From: an uncultured virus (IMG/VR IMGVR_UViG_3300046010_007863)
Taxonomy: Duplodnaviria; Heunggongvirae; Uroviricota; Caudoviricetes
IMG/VR virus record: IMGVR_UViG_3300046010_007863
Direction: 5' to 3' (one strand)
DNA length: 64,000 bases
Positions 1,133 to 34,010 of this stretch are shown here, in pieces. The notes beneath the pieces are model-generated. The model was not told where the DNA came from, did not search any database, and was given only the letters and a program-made list of their open reading frames with translations. Every line of letters begins with the position of its first letter. The first letter of the stretch is position 1. The translations under genes and the position numbers were made by a program.

Positions 1133-1498
1133 CTACTTGTAGTTACGTTCGATGAACGATGTTAGATCATCAACGATCTTTTGCAGACTTTGATACGTAA
1201 ATCGTCTTGCTTGCTGATATGCCGAATACCTTTCCCGACTGAACTCGCCAGCTTGAAAACCTGGTATGCTTTTTAGTTCCTTTGGGACAATATCATTCAT
1301 GTCTTCTAAATATGCTCTCATAGACATAACGGTGGATGCAATATCAAGAAATACTTCTTTCGTTTCCTTCACAGAATCGCCGTCACCTCTCGATTTGATT
1401 CTCTTGATTTTGGACTCAAGTCCGCTTGTGTTCACTGTATTGTCTTCGTTTAGTGTGTTTTCGTTTAGTAGACCAGCGAGTTTCTTCAATCTATCCAT
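1133..1498 (-). CDS. Hypothetical protein with N-terminal RLKKLAGLLNE motif (possible internal head protein)
   Basis: ORF with GGAG RBS and upstream TATTTAT motif; N-terminal motif shared with 25928..26221. Confidence 0.7.
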   Translation of the reverse strand: MDRLKKLAGLLNENTLNEDNTVNTSGLESKIKRIKSRGDGDSVKETKEVFLDIASTVMSMRAYLEDMNDIVPKELKSIPGFQAGEFSRERYSAYQQARRFTYQSLQKIVDDLTSFIERNYK

Positions 1499-1574: not shown

Positions 1575-1976
1575 TCAAGTAGGAGAATCACCATCCATTA
1601 CCATATCAACCAATTGCGAGCATAGTTCAGTTCTGTCTTGTGTATCAAGGAATAGTTCTCGCTTACTATCTACCGGGACGTAAGATTCAAACAATTCATC
1701 AATTACATCTTCGTCAATCGAATCAAAGATAATTTCCCACTTATTGGCTGTACCAATCGTCTCTTGAAGTACCGCGAGAATCACATCGTCACCAACGGCT
1801 TCAGCGTACTTATCAATAAACTCGTTATCGTCCATGTCCATATACTTCTGCTTCAGTTCATCACCCATTTGAACAACGGTCTCTTCGTCGTTGTATGATG
1901 CAATACTACGGATGGTCTCGATGATGAGTGCTTCCCGTGGTGTAAGTTTCATATTGATTGTTGGGTTGGATTTCAT
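1575..1976 (-). CDS. Acidic hypothetical protein
   Basis: 133-aa ORF with AAAGGA-CAACAATG-type leader. Confidence 0.7.
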   Translation of the reverse strand: MKSNPTINMKLTPREALIIETIRSIASYNDEETVVQMGDELKQKYMDMDDNEFIDKYAEAVGDDVILAVLQETIGTANKWEIIFDSIDEDVIDELFESYVPVDSKRELFLDTQDRTELCSQLVDMVMDGDSPT

Positions 1977-2002
1977 TGTTGTGTTCCTTTGTTGTTTTGT
2001 TG

Positions 2003-2395
2003 TTATACTATTGTATTTGGCATTTCAGGAAAATCATCTTTGGTAACATCTCCTGTCAGTCGGACGTTACCGTTCTCACCGAATAACTTGAAGCAAAGAG
2101 TATTGTATAGACCCGATACGTGATTCCAATTTACAATCACACCATCGACTTCCGGCCTATGTACACCCTTGACTGGAATACTGTGTGCACAGTTCCCACT
2201 GATAAGTCGGTTGATACCCGACTTAGCTATTGCGAAATACTTGAATTCGTGCGATGTACCGCAATTCAAATATTCATCTCCGTTCTGATCCCAAACACGC
2301 CACTCTCCGTCAACAATCACGTTGCCCTGTGGATCAACGTTGGTTGATTTATGGACGTAGGAGGCACGAAGATAGATGAAGTTTTGGTTAGCCAT
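2003..2395 (-). CDS. Stand-alone paralogue of the N-terminal domain of the adjacent AAA+ ATPase
   Basis: MANQNFIYLRAS, WRVWDQNG, AKSGINRLI and FKLFGENGNVRLT...DFP match the N-terminus of 2517..3725. Confidence 0.8.
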   Translation of the reverse strand: MANQNFIYLRASYVHKSTNVDPQGNVIVDGEWRVWDQNGDEYLNCGTSHEFKYFAIAKSGINRLISGNCAHSIPVKGVHRPEVDGVIVNWNHVSGLYNTLCFKLFGENGNVRLTGDVTKDDFPEMPNTIV

Positions 2396-2428
2396 TGTTT
2401 TGTTTTCTTTGTTTTAGATACCGCGGTT

Positions 2429-2502
2429 AAAAAGAGTGGGAGGGAACGACCGCCAATTCACAGTCCTATTGCTCCGGTTACAGAGCTCACCCTCCCATTC
2501 TC
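2429..2502 (-). ncRNA. Candidate structured RNA / terminator with three-way junction
   Basis: Outer stem GGGAGGG/CCCUCCC followed by U5; two inner hairpins GCUCU/GGAGC and GACUGU/GCGGUC. Confidence 0.45.
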
Positions 2503-2516
2503 ACACACAAGGACGG

Positions 2517-3725
2517 TTAGGACTTAACCGTATCATTTTCATCGAACATATTATCGGACTTCAGGTTCTCATCAGGGATGAACTTCTGAACAATCTGCTT
2601 CACATAGGTACGCTCTGATTCGAGACCACCGTCGTTAGAGTAGTAAGGATAGATACAAACATCAGCGGCTTCTTGAAGTGTGAACCCGTCACAGATAAGA
2701 CCAGCGGCAGCAAGAAGTGTACGAGTAGAGATAGCCGTAGAGATACGTGAACCGTCCATAGCTTCAATCTGTGTGGCGTTGTAAACGTCCGCAAGAATCT
2801 CAACCGTCTTCGCATCCATTGTAGGACACGTCATCGAGACAAGTTCCATCTGTTGTTGCTTGTTGAGGATGTCCATCTCAAGGATTTGGAAACGGTCAGC
2901 GATAGCACGGTCAATCTGACGTGTTGACGTGTACTCCATACCGATGTTCGCGGTAGCAATAAAAGAAACACCGTTGGCTACCTTGATAACAGGAGATTGG
3001 GGTGATTCATCTACACGTACATAACGTTGTGATTCATCGAGAACAGTCATGAGAATGTTCCAAGCTTCAGGGTGGGCACGTGACAACTCATCAAGAAGGA
3101 TAACCGCGTTCTCTGTTTGAAGTGCCTTGATGAACGTAGAGTCAGCGAAGTAAGTACCCGTGTCCTTGTTGAAGTGGGTGTTACCAATCAGAGTAGAACG
3201 TGGGTCTTGTGTAGCGCCAAGGTTGAAGTAGAAGAACGGACGTTCCATCGCGTTAGCTACCGTGGTAACTGCAAGTGTCTTACCACAACCAGCAGGGCCT
3301 GTAATCATAAGGTTCTTACCACGAAGAACCGAACGAACAAGGTACTTCCACTTCACGTCAGAGAGGATAAGTGTCTTTGGACGAATGTCAGGTGACGTGT
3401 GAATCATGTTCAGAACCGCTTGTTCGTTCTGTGGTGCAGTCAAGGTAAACTCCTGTGTGTTAGATTCTGTTGTAGATTGTGAGATAGGTTCTGGTGGGAA
3501 GTCGTTTCCGTAAACTTCGTTAGTGATACGAACGTTACCACCTTCAAACATCTTGAAGTAAAGGTCGAAGAACTCTTCTCCTTCGGAGCCGTACTTACGG
3601 ATAAGACGGTCAATACCTGCCTTGCCATCCGCATAGTAGTTCTTCTCGTTACCGTTCTGGTCCCATACGTGCCAGTAACCGTCGATGACCGAGGCGCGAA
3701 GATAGGTGAAGTTTTGGTTAGCCAT
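2517..3725 (-). CDS. MoxR-type (CbbQ/NorQ/CobS-like) AAA+ ATPase
   Basis: Walker A GPAGCGKT, Walker B ILLDELSR, ATAN, DRAIADRF, ISTRTL; start moved to ATG 3725 (AAGGA RBS, promoter at 3770-3800). Confidence 0.9.
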   Translation of the reverse strand: MANQNFTYLRASVIDGYWHVWDQNGNEKNYYADGKAGIDRLIRKYGSEGEEFFDLYFKMFEGGNVRITNEVYGNDFPPEPISQSTTESNTQEFTLTAPQNEQAVLNMIHTSPDIRPKTLILSDVKWKYLVRSVLRGKNLMITGPAGCGKTLAVTTVANAMERPFFYFNLGATQDPRSTLIGNTHFNKDTGTYFADSTFIKALQTENAVILLDELSRAHPEAWNILMTVLDESQRYVRVDESPQSPVIKVANGVSFIATANIGMEYTSTRQIDRAIADRFQILEMDILNKQQQMELVSMTCPTMDAKTVEILADVYNATQIEAMDGSRISTAISTRTLLAAAGLICDGFTLQEAADVCIYPYYSNDGGLESERTYVKQIVQKFIPDENLKSDNMFDENDTVKS

Positions 3726-25017: not shown

Positions 25018-25935
25018 ATGAATCTCGGTTATGCCTGTATCAATATGACCCTCGGTAAGAAGAAGATTACCACCAATCGGTCAATGATAAAGAAAACGTT
25101 TCTTCAACGTGGTATCAATTATGCCGCTGAACTTGGTCTCCAAAACGTCAAGGACTTGGAAACTATTATTCATTGGAACGTAGAAAACAACATCAAACTT
25201 TTCCGTATCTCATCCGATATGTTCCCGTGGGCATCCGAATACGGTATAGAAAACATCCCTAACATACAGGAAATTACAGAGGTAATGAAACGTACAGGTG
25301 AGTATGTAAAACTCAATGGCGTTCGTTTAGGGTGTCACCCTGGCCCTTTTAACGTACTATGTTCACCGAATGAAAAAGTAGTTCAGAACACTATTATTGA
25401 CTTAGAAAACCACGGTAAAGTTCTTGACTTACTTCAACTTTCACATACACCATACAACAAGATAAACATCCATTGTAACGGTACATATGGTGATAAAATT
25501 GCAAGTATGCAACGTTTTTGTGACAACTATGACAGATTGTCAGAGTCTGTCAAATCTCGTCTTACAGTTGAGAATGATGACAAGGCGAGTATGTATAGTG
25601 TGAAAGACTTGATGTATATCCACGAACGTACTGGTATTCCAATTGTGTTTGATTATCACCATCACACGTTCAATACAGGTGGTCTAACTGAACAAGAAGC
25701 CCTTGAACTTGCTATGTCAACGTGGCCGGATGGTATTACTCCTGTTGTTCATTACTCATCATCCAAACCAAAGGAGTCGGGTAATCCAAAAGACAAACCA
25801 CAGGCTCATGCAGATTACATTTTGGAGAAAATAAATACTTATAGTCATAACGTAGATATTATGTTGGAATGTAAAGCCAAAGAATTGGCACTACTCGAAT
25901 ATCGTAAACACAATGGAGAAATTCAAAATGGATAG
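25018..25935 (+). CDS. uvsE: UV damage endonuclease (UVDE)
   Basis: MNLGYACIN, FRISSDMFPW, HPGPFNVL, INIHCNG, LTVENDD, VFDYHHH, HYS, QAHADY, MLECKAKE; start set to ATG 25018. Confidence 0.93.
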   Translation: MNLGYACINMTLGKKKITTNRSMIKKTFLQRGINYAAELGLQNVKDLETIIHWNVENNIKLFRISSDMFPWASEYGIENIPNIQEITEVMKRTGEYVKLNGVRLGCHPGPFNVLCSPNEKVVQNTIIDLENHGKVLDLLQLSHTPYNKINIHCNGTYGDKIASMQRFCDNYDRLSESVKSRLTVENDDKASMYSVKDLMYIHERTGIPIVFDYHHHTFNTGGLTEQEALELAMSTWPDGITPVVHYSSSKPKESGNPKDKPQAHADYILEKINTYSHNVDIMLECKAKELALLEYRKHNGEIQNG

Positions 25936-26221
25936 AAAGAGATTACAAAAACTCGCTGGTATTATAACAGAAAATTATGTTTCTGAATCTATACCACAAA
26001 ATGTTATGAATCAAAAATACAAGTATGTTGGTAAGACATTAGAGATAGAACCAGGTTCAGATGTTTTTGATTCACTCGATGATTTCTTTGCAGAGATACG
26101 TTATAGTTGGGACACAACAGAAACTGAAGTTCAGAAGTACATAGATTCTCTTTCATACGAAGGTGGAAAGATTGTTTCTAATCATTCTGGTACAAAACAA
26201 GTAGAGTTGGTAAAACAGTAA
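25928..26221 (+). CDS. Hypothetical protein with N-terminal RLQKLAGIITE motif
   Basis: GGAG RBS; motif shared with 1133..1498. Confidence 0.65.
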   Translation: MDRKRLQKLAGIITENYVSESIPQNVMNQKYKYVGKTLEIEPGSDVFDSLDDFFAEIRYSWDTTETEVQKYIDSLSYEGGKIVSNHSGTKQVELVKQ

Positions 26222-26231
26222 GAGTGAACTT

Positions 26232-27446
26232 ATGATAAGTAAACTGTTCAGTCTAAAAAACCTTATTTGGTTTTGTGCGATTGGATTAGCAGTATTTTCC
26301 GGATATTATTCCGTATTCGGTATATCCAAATTATTTTCAGGTGGTTCGTGGTCAATTATTGGTATGGCGGCAATGTTGGAACTTTCCAAACTTGTTGTTG
26401 TAACTTTTTTACACGATAACTTCAAAACACTCCGACTTCTTTTCAAGGGGTATCTTCTATCTGCCGCAGTAGTTCTTATGGTAATCACCTCTATTGGTGT
26501 TTATGGGTATCTAACAAACTCATACCAAGAAACTGCGAAGGTGGTTTACAAAACACAAAATGAAATTGTACTTCTTGACCAAAAGAAAAAACTTTTTGAA
26601 GAACAAAAGATTCAGTTAGACAAAGCAGTTGAAGAAAAAAATTCACGTCTCAAATCACTTGACCAAATCCGTGTATCACAACAAAATGCTTACACACAAC
26701 AGCTATCGGAAAAACGTGGAACTGGTGGTCTATCAAAGAATATCGCTTCAATAGACAAATCATCCGAAGGATTGAACTCTGATATTTCCACTCTTACACA
26801 AAAGTCATTCGTACTTTCAGATTCTATCGCTGCAATAGAACAAACAAAACTAACACTCAACAACGAAACATTCTCATCGGAACTTGGACCACTTCTCTAC
26901 TTGAGTCGTATCACAAACATTCCGATGGATAGTGTTGTTAACTGGTTCATTCTATTTCTCGTTATTGTATTTGACCCACTTGCGGTTAGTTTGGTAATAG
27001 CCGCTAATCATTTGAGTGATAAAGAAAAACAAAAAGAAACATTAGATGAATTGAGTGAGATTGGTCAAGACATAGGAATCGGATATGAAGAACCAACTCA
27101 AAGTTTCCCACCAGCTGTAAATGACCAAATTACAGATTCGGTTACGCAGGCTCACTTACACGTACAGTCACAGATTACAGATTCTGTTACACAGATTAGA
27201 GAGGAACCACAACTGGTTGTTGAAGAACCAGAAGTAGAACTTGCACTTGGTGATATTGTGGATGATACACCAAAGAAAGAAAGAAAGAAAAGAAAATCAA
27301 AAGATTTGAAAAAGTCAGAGGAAAGTAGTATATTAGATGAATCATCTAATGATGATGAACAAAGGAAGTTTTATGAGGAGGAAATTCAACCTGCTCAATT
27401 ACCAGCAGTAACATCAACGGGGTATTCACGAGGCATTTCTGTATGA
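26232..27446 (+). CDS. Multi-pass membrane protein with coiled coil and RebB-like peptide in its C-terminal tail
   Basis: 3 N-terminal TM helices, LELSKLV, ITSIGVYGYL, ELGPLLYL, IVFDPLAVSL; FPPAVNDQITDSVTQ. Confidence 0.8.
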   Translation: MISKLFSLKNLIWFCAIGLAVFSGYYSVFGISKLFSGGSWSIIGMAAMLELSKLVVVTFLHDNFKTLRLLFKGYLLSAAVVLMVITSIGVYGYLTNSYQETAKVVYKTQNEIVLLDQKKKLFEEQKIQLDKAVEEKNSRLKSLDQIRVSQQNAYTQQLSEKRGTGGLSKNIASIDKSSEGLNSDISTLTQKSFVLSDSIAAIEQTKLTLNNETFSSELGPLLYLSRITNIPMDSVVNWFILFLVIVFDPLAVSLVIAANHLSDKEKQKETLDELSEIGQDIGIGYEEPTQSFPPAVNDQITDSVTQAHLHVQSQITDSVTQIREEPQLVVEEPEVELALGDIVDDTPKKERKKRKSKDLKKSEESSILDESSNDDEQRKFYEEEIQPAQLPAVTSTGYSRGISV

Positions 27447-27862: not shown

Positions 27863-28522
27863 ATGGCAGGTTTCTATGATGATGAGGATGAGAACGTACA
27901 AAAAACAAGTACAAAGAAATCAGAAGAAAAAGGTGAAGATTTACCAGTAAAGTGGAAAGAGGCTCTTTCACAAATTGATTATGGTATTGATGTAGAAAGC
28001 TCTACTCTGTATATGTTTGGTGATATTGCAGATGGAACTCTTTATGATTTTATGTTGAGAATAAAGGCTATTCTTCACATGAGAGAAGATGATAAGAAGG
28101 ATAATCCAATCAACATTATTATCAATTCTGACGGTGGTGATGTATATGAAGCACTCGGTATGATTGACTTTATTCAATCACTCAACGTAAAGGTAAACAC
28201 AATTTGTAGAGGACGTGCAATGTCCGCAGCCGCCCTACTTCTTTGTTCGGGAACAGGTGTTCGTGCTGCTTCAAAAAACAGTACAATCATGTTCCATGAA
28301 ATGTCATCAGGTATCTATGGTAAGTCATCAGACATGAAGGCAAACGTTCAACACATGGAAAAGTTGGAAGAAGTCCTTGTTCAGATTATGAGTGAAAACT
28401 CAAACAAGGATGCCAAGTTTTGGAAAGAAACAACACTCAAAGATTATTATCTATCACCTGAAGAGGCACTCGGACTTGGTGTAATTGATTCAATCATCGA
28501 GCCAAAATTCAAGAGAGGATAA
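27863..28522 (+). CDS. clpP: ClpP-family protease subunit
   Basis: INSDGGDV, GRAMSAAALLL (Ser), IMFHE (His), DYYLSPEEALGLGVID. Confidence 0.9.
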   Translation: MAGFYDDEDENVQKTSTKKSEEKGEDLPVKWKEALSQIDYGIDVESSTLYMFGDIADGTLYDFMLRIKAILHMREDDKKDNPINIIINSDGGDVYEALGMIDFIQSLNVKVNTICRGRAMSAAALLLCSGTGVRAASKNSTIMFHEMSSGIYGKSSDMKANVQHMEKLEEVLVQIMSENSNKDAKFWKETTLKDYYLSPEEALGLGVIDSIIEPKFKRG

Positions 28523-31274: not shown

Positions 31275-34010
31275 ATGGCAACAAGAGAAGAACTCGCGGA
31301 AAAATATAGAAAAGACAGAAAGGAAAAAATTCTAAAACTTCAGGGTATATTTAGTTCTCAAATTACCCAAGAAGTAAAAAGATATTCTAAACTGCAAATA
31401 TCAGACCCTGAACGTGGTTTGATTGATTCATCTTATATTTCTGCTTTTTATACAGCGAATGATTTTTATCCAAAAGATGAACTGTTATGGGATTTTTTGA
31501 ACCTTCCAACATCTCAACGTGGGTCAAAAATAAGAAAAGATTTTCAAGACAAACTATCAAACAAAGATGAACCATTTGGTTATTTACTTCTGACCGGTTA
31601 CTGTGGAATTTCACAAACAGGTACTTTTATAAATAAGAAATTCTCATTGAATGTTGGTGTGTTTGAAACATCATATCTAAAACTTCCAAATGAAACAAAT
31701 CCATCCCTAATAGAAAGTATTAGAACAGATTACAACACCATAGTTGCAGAATCATATCAAGAACTTAGTAAAGCATTATCTTCTTTATCATATCCAATCT
31801 CACAGATAAATGAAAATAAAGGATTTTCTAAACATATAGAAAGTATAAATGAAGAACTGGAAGGTACTAATTTTCTAGAAATATCATCCATACCTGTCAT
31901 AGTAAATTCATTTATTGATATACCCGATGGTACTAATGAGGGAGTACGTGGCGAGTTCAATAACATTTTTCCAAAACCGGAAGGATGGGATGAACTTTTT
32001 GGTACACCACAAAATCCTGGTACAACTGGTGTTAGTGGAGTAGCTGGTGTAGCTGGTACAACTGGTGTTAGCGGAGTAGCTGGTGTAGCTGGTACAACTG
32101 GTGTTAGCGGAGTAGCTGGTGTAGCTGGTACAACTGGTGTTATCGGTACAACCGAAGAAGTAAATAATCAGACCACGGATTCCGGTCAAACAAATGCAAC
32201 ACCTCAAGCTGGAACTTCTGGTAATACTCGAAAATATCTCTCAATAGAAGCTGTAAAAGATGACGAAATTGTTATAAGAACGGAGAATACTGGAAGTTCA
32301 AATTACTTATCAACTGTATTTTTACAAGATGACCCAGTTGTTGAAGACTATTATAGTGAAAGTCAAATAAAACAAATTCAAACAGAAAAGGTAAATTCAC
32401 AATCTAAAGATAAAGTACAACCTGGTAGTGAAGTAAATAAAGAAGTAGTAAATAAAGAAATAGAGCAGAAAAAACAAGAAACAGAAGCTCAGAGAAAATC
32501 AGAAGAGTCGGATGCTTTAGAAAAAAAACAAGTAAAAGAAAAGTCAAATGGTGTACCCGATGGTTCTAATCCCGATTTACCTGAAGGTAAAACTGTAAAA
32601 ATAGAGGAAAAATCAAAACCAATACCTGAAGATAAAAAACCAAAAGCAATGACACAGATTCCACCACGCGCATTGACTTTTATAAAATGGATGAATAGTG
32701 TTGGTAAAGATCCGACGAATGGAATATTTTTTAGAGGAGAAGGTAAAAAATTATACCCAAAGAATTCACAACCCCCAATAGATTTTGGCAGTGTTGAAAG
32801 TAGATTTAAAAATCTATTCTCTTTTGGTTCTCAATTGGATAAAATTTTCAAAGGATATACTGTTGAATCTCCAATAGATGCGGCACTTCTAATGAATTCC
32901 GGTGCAGTTGGTAGATTCAATAAAAATTGGCCGTATATGTTTGGGGAAGGGTCGGAAATACACGCCGCAATAACAAGAGCTCGTAGTGTAGTAAAAGAAT
33001 CACAAGGAGGTATAGGTTCATTTGCTGCCGTTATCGATCACCCAAATGAAATAGATACAAATTGGGCCGAAAATCCATTTTGGTGTGGTCTGTGTACAAA
33101 TTTTATGCTTTATTCTAACGGAAAATATTCATCTGATAGTAATCCTGTGGACATAACAAACACAAGAAACGCCCCAACACTTTATTCCAAGTCACCATTT
33201 AACATTTTTGGAGAACGATTGGATAGTCGAAAGAAGAAATTACAGAATGATATATCTTCTAAAAAAGGAACCATTTCTGGTAATAACTCTTCAATAAAAA
33301 CAAAGAAAACATCACTAGAAAAAGAAAAACCAAATGCAGAAAAAAATGAAGCAAACTATAGAGACAATACAGATCCAACAAAATATAATCAAAAAAAAAT
33401 AGATGGATTTTACATAAAAGTTAGAAACCTTGAGAGAGAAATACAAAATCTAGAGAATGCAAACAAAAAATTGGAAGAAGATATAAAAGAATATCAATCG
33501 GAGTTAGATAGTATTTCAAAAAATTCATCTTCTGGTACTTTTTATAACGAAAATAATGTTGTTGCATTATTTGAAAATGGATTTCATTGGACATCAAACG
33601 GTCTTACTGAAGCTGGTAAACAACTTTGGGATAAGATAAAAAATTGGCCAGGTGCATTTGTGGTGAGAAGACCTGACGGTAACGGTTCTGGTCACGTAGA
33701 AACACTATTACATTTTTCACCGACCGGTGAGATATACACTATAGGTGGAAATACCGGACTAGACAACTCGGATGGAAATGGACAGGAGTATGGATTCAAA
33801 AAATATACCGGTATTCACGATTTCAATGGTAAAATACCGTATTTCTTTGTCCATAGACGAGGAGATGCAAAACCATATACTAACGGAATTGGATTTAGTG
33901 TCAAACAAACTGAAACTTACAAGAAATATGTAAACGACTTACAAGTAAAAAAAGACAAAGAATTGAATCCTGCTGCTTTCAATATTTTAAGAAATATAAT
34001 GGAGATATGA
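31275..34010 (+). CDS. Large virion-associated protein with C-terminal CHAP/NlpC-like amidase motifs
   Basis: PFWCG (Cys), SGHV (His), TIGGNT; lies between the spike and gp25. Confidence 0.6.
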   Translation: MATREELAEKYRKDRKEKILKLQGIFSSQITQEVKRYSKLQISDPERGLIDSSYISAFYTANDFYPKDELLWDFLNLPTSQRGSKIRKDFQDKLSNKDEPFGYLLLTGYCGISQTGTFINKKFSLNVGVFETSYLKLPNETNPSLIESIRTDYNTIVAESYQELSKALSSLSYPISQINENKGFSKHIESINEELEGTNFLEISSIPVIVNSFIDIPDGTNEGVRGEFNNIFPKPEGWDELFGTPQNPGTTGVSGVAGVAGTTGVSGVAGVAGTTGVSGVAGVAGTTGVIGTTEEVNNQTTDSGQTNATPQAGTSGNTRKYLSIEAVKDDEIVIRTENTGSSNYLSTVFLQDDPVVEDYYSESQIKQIQTEKVNSQSKDKVQPGSEVNKEVVNKEIEQKKQETEAQRKSEESDALEKKQVKEKSNGVPDGSNPDLPEGKTVKIEEKSKPIPEDKKPKAMTQIPPRALTFIKWMNSVGKDPTNGIFFRGEGKKLYPKNSQPPIDFGSVESRFKNLFSFGSQLDKIFKGYTVESPIDAALLMNSGAVGRFNKNWPYMFGEGSEIHAAITRARSVVKESQGGIGSFAAVIDHPNEIDTNWAENPFWCGLCTNFMLYSNGKYSSDSNPVDITNTRNAPTLYSKSPFNIFGERLDSRKKKLQNDISSKKGTISGNNSSIKTKKTSLEKEKPNAEKNEANYRDNTDPTKYNQKKIDGFYIKVRNLEREIQNLENANKKLEEDIKEYQSELDSISKNSSSGTFYNENNVVALFENGFHWTSNGLTEAGKQLWDKIKNWPGAFVVRRPDGNGSGHVETLLHFSPTGEIYTIGGNTGLDNSDGNGQEYGFKKYTGIHDFNGKIPYFFVHRRGDAKPYTNGIGFSVKQTETYKKYVNDLQVKKDKELNPAAFNILRNIMEI
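32017..32143 (+). repeat. 36-bp tandem repeat, about 3.5 copies (GTTGVSGVAGVA)
   Basis: ctggtacaactggtgttagYggagtagctggtgtag repeated. Confidence 0.9.

Follow-up and report, generated by a model that had tools for sequence, protein, structure and literature searches.

A portable peptide resembling the N-terminal arm of R-body (Reb) proteins recurs in unrelated phage proteins

A short peptide that copies the N-terminal arm of the R-body subunit Reb is duplicated in the tail of a phage membrane protein and recurs in many other phage proteins. R-bodies are coiled ribbons that bacteria use against predators. The initial annotation had proposed a captured or mimicked Reb motif in a phage membrane protein. 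The copying of the Reb arm was corroborated, but the description turned out to be too narrow, because the tag was found in about 55 unrelated phage families. The portable Reb-arm pattern in unrelated phage proteins is well supported, and from it we infer a mechanism, which is weighed against its rivals below.

The window, i.e. the whole stretch of 64,000 nucleotides that was analysed, contains the carrier gene at 26232..27446 (+). Its translation was borne out: it encodes 404 amino acids, in which four membrane helices and a long coiled coil precede an acidic tail that varies. Membrane helices 1-3 (amino acids 11-29, 42-60 and 67-85; 26262..26486, +) were recognized in a hydropathy scan and as helices in the AlphaFold model. 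They are followed by a coiled-coil hairpin (about amino acids 96-235; 26517..26936, +; AlphaFold, pLDDT about 70-93) and by membrane helix 4 (amino acids 238-256; 26943..26999, +; hydropathy), which contains an invariant VFDPLA. According to the positive-inside rule, the hairpin would be located outside the cytoplasm and the acidic tail (27078..27443, +) inside it. The tail is likely to be disordered, judging from the model, in which the pLDDT is mostly under 50 from amino acid 285 onwards; many indels occur in it among homologues. The protein belongs to a conserved family in large myophages (2205 relatives found). No Pfam or PHROG family could be assigned to it. DUF4407 did not match the window protein, and 2 of 66 aligned relatives matched it weakly, the best with an E of 7.6e-4, below the cut-off. 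A fold search with the carrier gave no match at E 0.001 or better, and the ESM Atlas returned only unnamed viral clusters for the whole protein and nothing usable for the tag. The closest cultured relatives are encoded by Microcystis phage Mel-JY01 (55%; the neighbouring genes are similar as well) and Flavobacterium phage immuto (33%); the core tag pattern had no match in Mel-JY01. A ClpP-like protease gene (27863..28522, +; Pfam CLP_protease E 8.8e-34) is mentioned for context only. Half or more of the window's words were present in 22 of 24 listed runs, all 22 of which were labelled lake water and six of which may be the source; the window's phage is thus a lake phage. RNA contigs from two runs did not extend over the tag, and their small share carries no information on habitat.

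Copy 1 of the tag (FPPAVNDQITDSVTQA; 27105..27152, +; amino acids 292-307) corresponds to residues 3-18 of Reb. Copy 2 (VQSQITDSVTQ; 27162..27194, +; amino acids 311-321) comprises the core only and is placed 45 bases after copy 1. Translation, hydropathy and an identity of 15/16 to Reb starts all agree with the earlier description of a duplicated RebB-like peptide in the acidic tail of a membrane protein. The eight core codons common to both copies specify identical residues and contain three silent differences (CAA/CAG, TCG/TCT and ACG/ACA), in accordance with the synonymous divergence noticed earlier. Two relatives that are 93-94% identical (P0002 and P0003) have a single tag copy and are 15 amino acids shorter. 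When the 16-mer of copy 1 was compared with 204 Reb N-termini from named genomes, 24 of them were identical at 15 of 16 positions and 98 at 13 or more. The QITD/DQITD motif, which is the named Reb signature in the accessible part of PMC13430693, is present in the window tag together with the preceding conserved proline. The peptide can therefore be identified with the Reb N-terminal signature, as had been proposed. The Reb set itself stems from a pattern scan of named genomes that yielded 225 distinct segments among the matches listed (135 rows); a simple rule assigned 210 of them to Reb, and on visual inspection most of the remaining 15 are Reb as well. The Reb N-terminal consensus is M-A-F-P-T-[AS]-V-N-[DSNG]-Q-I-T-D-[SA]-V-T-Q-[AS]-N, and that of the tag is F-P-x-[AS]-[VI]-N-[DSP]-Q-I-T-D-[SA]-V-T-Q. 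In a structure model, Reb forms one long helix (residues 6-87), of which the tag segment comprises the cap and the first turns. The tag is thus a copy of the Reb N-terminal arm, i.e. the N-cap and the first three turns of the Reb helix.

The carrier protein, however, is not a Reb, because the Pfam RebB profile (PF11747; 68 positions, cut-off 24 bits) scored its positions 1-12 only, below the cut-off. This alignment to the profile start, which had been suggested as a check, was obtained with a 61-amino-acid piece (E 0.006, 17.1 bits), whereas the whole protein of 404 amino acids gave no match. Reb proteins are small single-helix proteins of about 75-115 amino acids with the signature at residue 7-10, unlike the carrier with its four helices. 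The Reb body that follows the signature (KxxxD/E, a second proline, QQQ) is absent from the carrier translation, and no RebB over the cut-off was detected in the nearest record (G001, 22% complete); the remainder of RebB is therefore missing, as had been claimed. In six frames of the window, QITD occurs in the two tag copies only, and no cluster of reb genes was found there. A complex prediction with two Reb copies and the tail (amino acids 283-326) scored 0.00 and speaks neither for nor against binding. Sequence searches of the PDB with the tag and with Reb gave chance-level matches only and revealed no Reb structure.

A pattern search across phages, also suggested earlier, led to many unrelated families. 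The strict 11-residue pattern matched at least 120 viral contig rows (37 families among the matches listed), and at least 120 rows were also obtained with the 8-residue core pattern. Together, these 240 overlapping rows formed 55 single-linkage families among the matches listed, a count in which doubtful carriers were left and a few families are perhaps over-split or due to chance. Possible chance near-matches are an aldehyde dehydrogenase (L512), L370, L382 and L424; L480, also kept in the family counts, looks like a Reb cut at the contig end. From rough recapture (strict 8/11; core 3/17; 40 of 120 core rows strict), about 165 strict and 500-700 core matches were estimated for 2.9 million viral contigs. 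The carriers include gp32 SSB, RecT, a T7-type scaffold, DnaK, Hc1, two endolysins, holin-like proteins, a CHASE2 cyclase, an OmpA/Pal protein, cytochrome c peroxidase, a cupin, tyrosinase, periplasmic and lipoprotein-like proteins, and many small membrane proteins. From what is known of these families, carriers would be present on both sides of the membrane and among both early and late genes. Every tag match examined was in frame within an ORF, and none of the 240 viral carrier rows among the matches listed matched a Reb-body profile. Of 31 records, 27 matched: 25 had a single match, one had a tandem pair and one had two tagged genes. These records were mostly picked for having the tag, so that 25/27 is not a prevalence; of the four non-matching records, one has a codon outside the pattern and three were relatives included for comparison. 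Genomes thus mostly contain about one tagged locus. For the same reason, the tag was rejected as an address that one phage would attach to many of its proteins. The nearest cultured relatives of the carriers, at identities of only 38-55%, infect Pelagibacter, Methylophilales, Flavobacterium and Microcystis. Two weak matches, unverified short contigs without QITD, were the outcome of a tblastn search of the tag against cultured phages, a search that is insensitive for an 11-mer. In one tagged phage record, an ORF (L620:772-1005) was noticed that presumably encodes a protein resembling ribosomal protein bS21.

Chance was ruled out as the origin of the matches, since about 0.001 11-mer matches would be expected per 1e10 codons. 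The reversed pattern had 0 viral matches, compared with at least 120 for the real one, and a scrambled core had 7 rows, all representing one protein. Two downstream Reb segments, whose patterns hit 129 and 49 of the 210 Reb genes at the protein level, yielded 0 viral matches. Phage-borne reb genes were rejected on the basis of these two Reb-body patterns, and the result agrees with the lack of Reb homologues in phage genomes that is reported in the available part of PMC3583457. When the core alone was searched, the upstream Reb positions were occupied by N in 34 of 39 families and by V in 29 of 39. Conversely, a search with the left part alone, complete at 37 matches, retrieved 36 in 10 families that continue with [SA]VTQ. 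True Reb genes depart from this ending in 34 of 121 cases, and the Bacteroidota loci in 13 of 24. The consensus test for the tag ending gave p values of 0.06 against all Reb genes and 0.005 against those of Bacteroidota, and is suggestive of tags keeping the common Reb ending while real Reb genes vary.

The initial annotation had taken the silent differences as a sign of selection on the peptide, and across families the residues are indeed kept while the codons vary. In 7 of 8 families, silent differences affect 33-47% of the motif codons, and residue changes affect 0-9%. The flanks change by 44-73%, a figure that indels inflate, since no gaps were allowed in the comparison, and that refers to members found through the motif. 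The RecT family was too uniform for a codon comparison, and the tag in the CHASE2 loop has 0 amino-acid changes among 6 variants. The tag is thus under selection at the protein level, as the codon comparisons show. Among 120 rows, 87 distinct 33-mers were present; all synonymous codons of the fixed residues were used, and serine was encoded by TCN as well as AGT. The GC3 of the tag tracks that of the carrier (rho 0.83, 240 tags). A fixed mobile DNA element was rejected in view of these 33-mers, the unrelated flanks and the carrier-like GC3. Bacteroidota O-glycosylation sites have the form D-S/T-x. Such a site was set aside, because about half of the tags have D-A-V there and many of the carriers belong to the cytoplasm. 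Taken together, the tag is portable: it is placed in whichever linker, tail or loop tolerates it and is kept by amino-acid selection. The sequence comparisons suggest an undescribed kind of mimicry.

Within the carrier's own family, the best 120 of the 2205 relatives were examined, a set that was obtained by protein search and is therefore free of the bias of finding members through the motif. The tag core was present in 76 of these best 120 of 2205, and two copies, by a slightly looser pattern, in 10. Conservation among homologues and alignment to Reb N-termini (15/16) were thus both found, the two properties on which the initial annotation had staked its proposal. In the tails of the homologues the flanks are variable and the position of the motif shifts, so that the tag forms a short conserved island inside a variable, low-confidence tail. 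In a quick tree built from 142 rows, of which 93 have the tag, 21 changes were needed, at least 7 of them forced by well-supported branches. This repeated gain and loss marks the tag as an accessory. In one clade of the family the tag ends with VT[VI].

Tags were also found in cells. A metagenome scan biased against Reb yielded 120 loci with 155 motif ORFs, 58 of them Reb and 97 non-Reb; most of the latter were viral-looking, and about ten looked cellular by eye. The cellular carriers include a pyruvate dehydrogenase E2, with the tag in a linker (L498:2665-3978), ribosomal protein S17, with the tag in an N-terminal extension (L499:2983-3354), and several secreted proteins. In genomes, tags were located in the linker of an ActB-like Flavobacteriaceae respiratory subunit (L625:5926-9075), in a hydroxylase and in a secreted protein of a Nitrososphaeraceae archaeon, whose last 22 residues are Reb-like (L199:2491-3057). 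Among 121 Nitrososphaeraceae genomes, the seed itself was the single one with the tag; a tag is also present in L462:2168-3238, which is archaeal-looking by its neighbours. In four genomes with tagged cellular proteins, one of them archaeal and none of established completeness, no RebB over the cut-off was detected; one of these (G004) has divergent Reb-like genes (E 0.06). Whole Reb is fused to signal-peptide- or lipoprotein-like proteins in P0199, P0193, P0197 and P0237, and these exported fusions hint at a Reb function outside the cytoplasm. An Asp/Asn beta-hydroxylase is fused to whole Reb in P0234 and to the Reb arm alone in L624:4035-4733; the arm may serve enzymes that modify proteins as a leader or as a site for docking. 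Trimmed fusions that retain only the arm are represented by L199, L467 and L624. Because whole-Reb fusions exist, one likely origin of the tag is fusion with whole Reb followed by trimming; another would be convergence in place within helices.

With the seeds excluded, reb was found in 3 of 400 Bacteroidota genomes, in 2 of 400 genomes from the class to which Curvibacter belongs (where a further gene was broken) and in 1 of 300 Flavobacteriaceae genomes. The same samples contained 2, 1 and 1 non-Reb 7-mer matches, which is at the control level of 1, 3 and 1. A reb gene with a premature stop was seen in a 1.7-Mb genome (L590, G920), and a lone reb gene (L584:1313-1573) adjoins a tail-sheath-like gene (1869-3050), as in contractile injection loci. 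Bacteroidota reb clusters end with a winged-helix AAA ATPase (L251:3987-5882 and L194:5376-6032; Pfam-checked for L251), which, judged from its domains, could be a candidate reader of the Reb arm.

The explanation that we tentatively prefer is a mimic directed at grazers, with the reader of the Reb arm residing in protists. Aquatic phages might repeatedly have adopted the arm as a portable warning or interference peptide against protists that eat infected hosts, a proposal that we put forward with considerable reserve. Because the identity of the carrier does not matter, the tag would act in trans and occupy the site at which the Reb arm is bound by its reader. This reader would be met once the infected cell is engulfed or broken, in grazers that would encounter R-bodies as toxic prey. 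R-bodies extend inside amoebae and hinder predation, according to the accessible portion of PMC13733733. The tag would make infected prey appear armed with R-bodies, or would act on the grazer like the Reb arm; the meal might be rejected or its digestion disturbed, and finished virions would survive. The membrane protein encoded at 26232-27446 would merely be this phage's carrier, and its second copy would raise the dose. A grazer-side reader is favoured by the distribution of carriers over 55 families, both membrane sides and early and late genes, by the single tagged locus of most genomes, by the tagged cellular proteins in genomes without RebB over the cut-off, by the retention of the common Reb ending, by the lake origin of the window's phage and, weakly, by the varied hosts of the carriers' cultured relatives. 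Unlike a bacterium, a virion can survive the rupture of the cell, and this would account for the enrichment in phages. The grazer-side reader is weakened by the possible incompleteness of the four genomes and the Reb-like genes of G004, by the cytoplasmic location of most carriers, which would be exposed only once digestion starts, and by the ending test, which is only suggestive and has an exception in the VT[VI] clade. Our literature search found neither a protist receptor for the tag peptide nor phage-grazer mimicry.

Tags (about 500-700 in 2.9 million contigs) and Reb clusters (0.3-0.75% of sampled genomes) are both rare, so that all tagged phages could infect Reb carriers. For this reason a decoy inside such hosts, a wider form of the idea in the initial annotation and itself somewhat doubtful, is nearly as likely as a reader in grazers. 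The tag would bind the Reb lattice or a Reb-reading assembly factor, such as the AAA ATPase with its winged-helix domain (L251), and cap or divert R-body assembly; the infected host could then neither rupture early nor invest in ribbons. In favour of this reading, the tag coincides exactly with the Reb segment that is conserved best, in part because of how the set with its invariant columns was selected; one copy per genome and the duplication would fit titration, and many carriers are abundant cytoplasmic or inner-membrane proteins. R-body assembly is described as pathway-sensitive in the available text of 10.64898/2026.05.21.725848, and the accessible part of PMC3583457 cites an earlier observation of phage-like particles together with R-bodies. 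However, in several carriers the tag is located outside the cytoplasm, a place in which no R-bodies form, for instance in the unchanged CHASE2 loop, and tags do not follow the variant endings of Bacteroidota Reb. Furthermore, Reb clusters are rare in the sampled Bacteroidota and Gammaproteobacteria, PA14 expresses reb in 0.26% of cells (PMC8322103, as far as available), and no anti-phage role of R-bodies was found in the literature search.

It is unlikely that the arm binds some other widespread prokaryotic reader, i.e. a defence sensor, toxin, protease or chaperone, which phages would block or recruit by converging on the peptide, with the R-body uninvolved. Near-matches within folded helices of DnaK and Hc1 would suggest such convergence in place, GC3 follows the carrier, strong enrichment in phages fits counter-defence, and unrelated viruses and bacteria do converge on one motif (PMC8812568, available part). 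However, no candidate for the reader was found, and it would have to reach both membrane sides across several phyla. The F-P-x-x left arm, which stops at the Reb start, and the trimmed fusions point to capture from reb genes instead. A tolerated relic, i.e. occasional capture of reb 5' ends followed by functionless drift, would fit the patchy presence on the tree and the fusions and trimmed forms, but is very improbable given the excess of silent changes, the lack of viral matches to two other Reb segments and the in-frame position of all matches examined.

Several known systems resemble the tag in part. Reb subunits themselves share residues 3-18 at 15/16 and the same S/A tolerance in the core; the tag differs in having no Reb body, in not being N-terminal, in lacking a reb cluster and in being embedded in unrelated proteins. 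Short peptides common to unrelated phage proteins are also known from the internal proteins of T4, which have a capsid-targeting sequence. That sequence, however, is attached to a free end of numerous proteins encoded by the same genome, whereas the Reb tag sits within its carriers, is found about once in each genome, spans phage groups that are unrelated and has its counterpart in a bacterial protein. Bacterial whole-Reb fusions, known from database entries, likewise join Reb sequence to an unrelated protein, but retain the full Reb domain; in the literature, we found no description of these fusions or of the trimmed tag. The closest logic is that of DDVF, a short linear motif with which unrelated viruses and Yersinia bind RSK kinases (accessible part of PMC8812568). 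In both cases a short motif, probably in disordered regions, is reused by unrelated microbial proteins. As far as that source is available, DDVF has a known target and is borne by dedicated effectors. The Reb tag, in contrast, has 11-16 residues, is found about once per genome on housekeeping or structural proteins of phages and imitates the subunit of a bacterial polymer. Cryptophyte ejectisome proteins were reportedly recognized as Reb homologues by Yamagishi in 2012. The same homology is reported in the available part of PMC3982174. A Reb tag in phage proteins was not found in the literature searched, which mostly excluded subscription journals, and the Reb tables of PMC13430693 could list fragments; the accessible parts of PMC8322103, 10.64898/2026.05.21.725848 and PMC13689365 describe no such tag.

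A long exact peptide that is mobile among phage proteins and under selection implies that something binds the Reb arm strongly enough to shape phage genomes. Identification of the reader would clarify the assembly of R-bodies or the response of predators to them, and would uncover either an interaction between phages and grazers or a role of R-bodies against phages. If a grazer-side reader exists, some protist protein reads R-bodies, and the tag would represent three-party molecular mimicry, in which a bacterial weapon against predators is copied by a phage and directed at a eukaryote. As a tag on otherwise ordinary genes, it belongs to a class of phage traits that is missed by annotation at the family level.

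Two minor observations concern other parts of the window. Two small proteins encoded at 1133-1498 (-) and 25913-26221 (+) have an N-terminal RL[KQ]KLAG[LI] motif in common, and a short tandem GTTGVSGVAGVA repeat is located at about 31990-32140, within an ORF of 911 amino acids (31275-34010).
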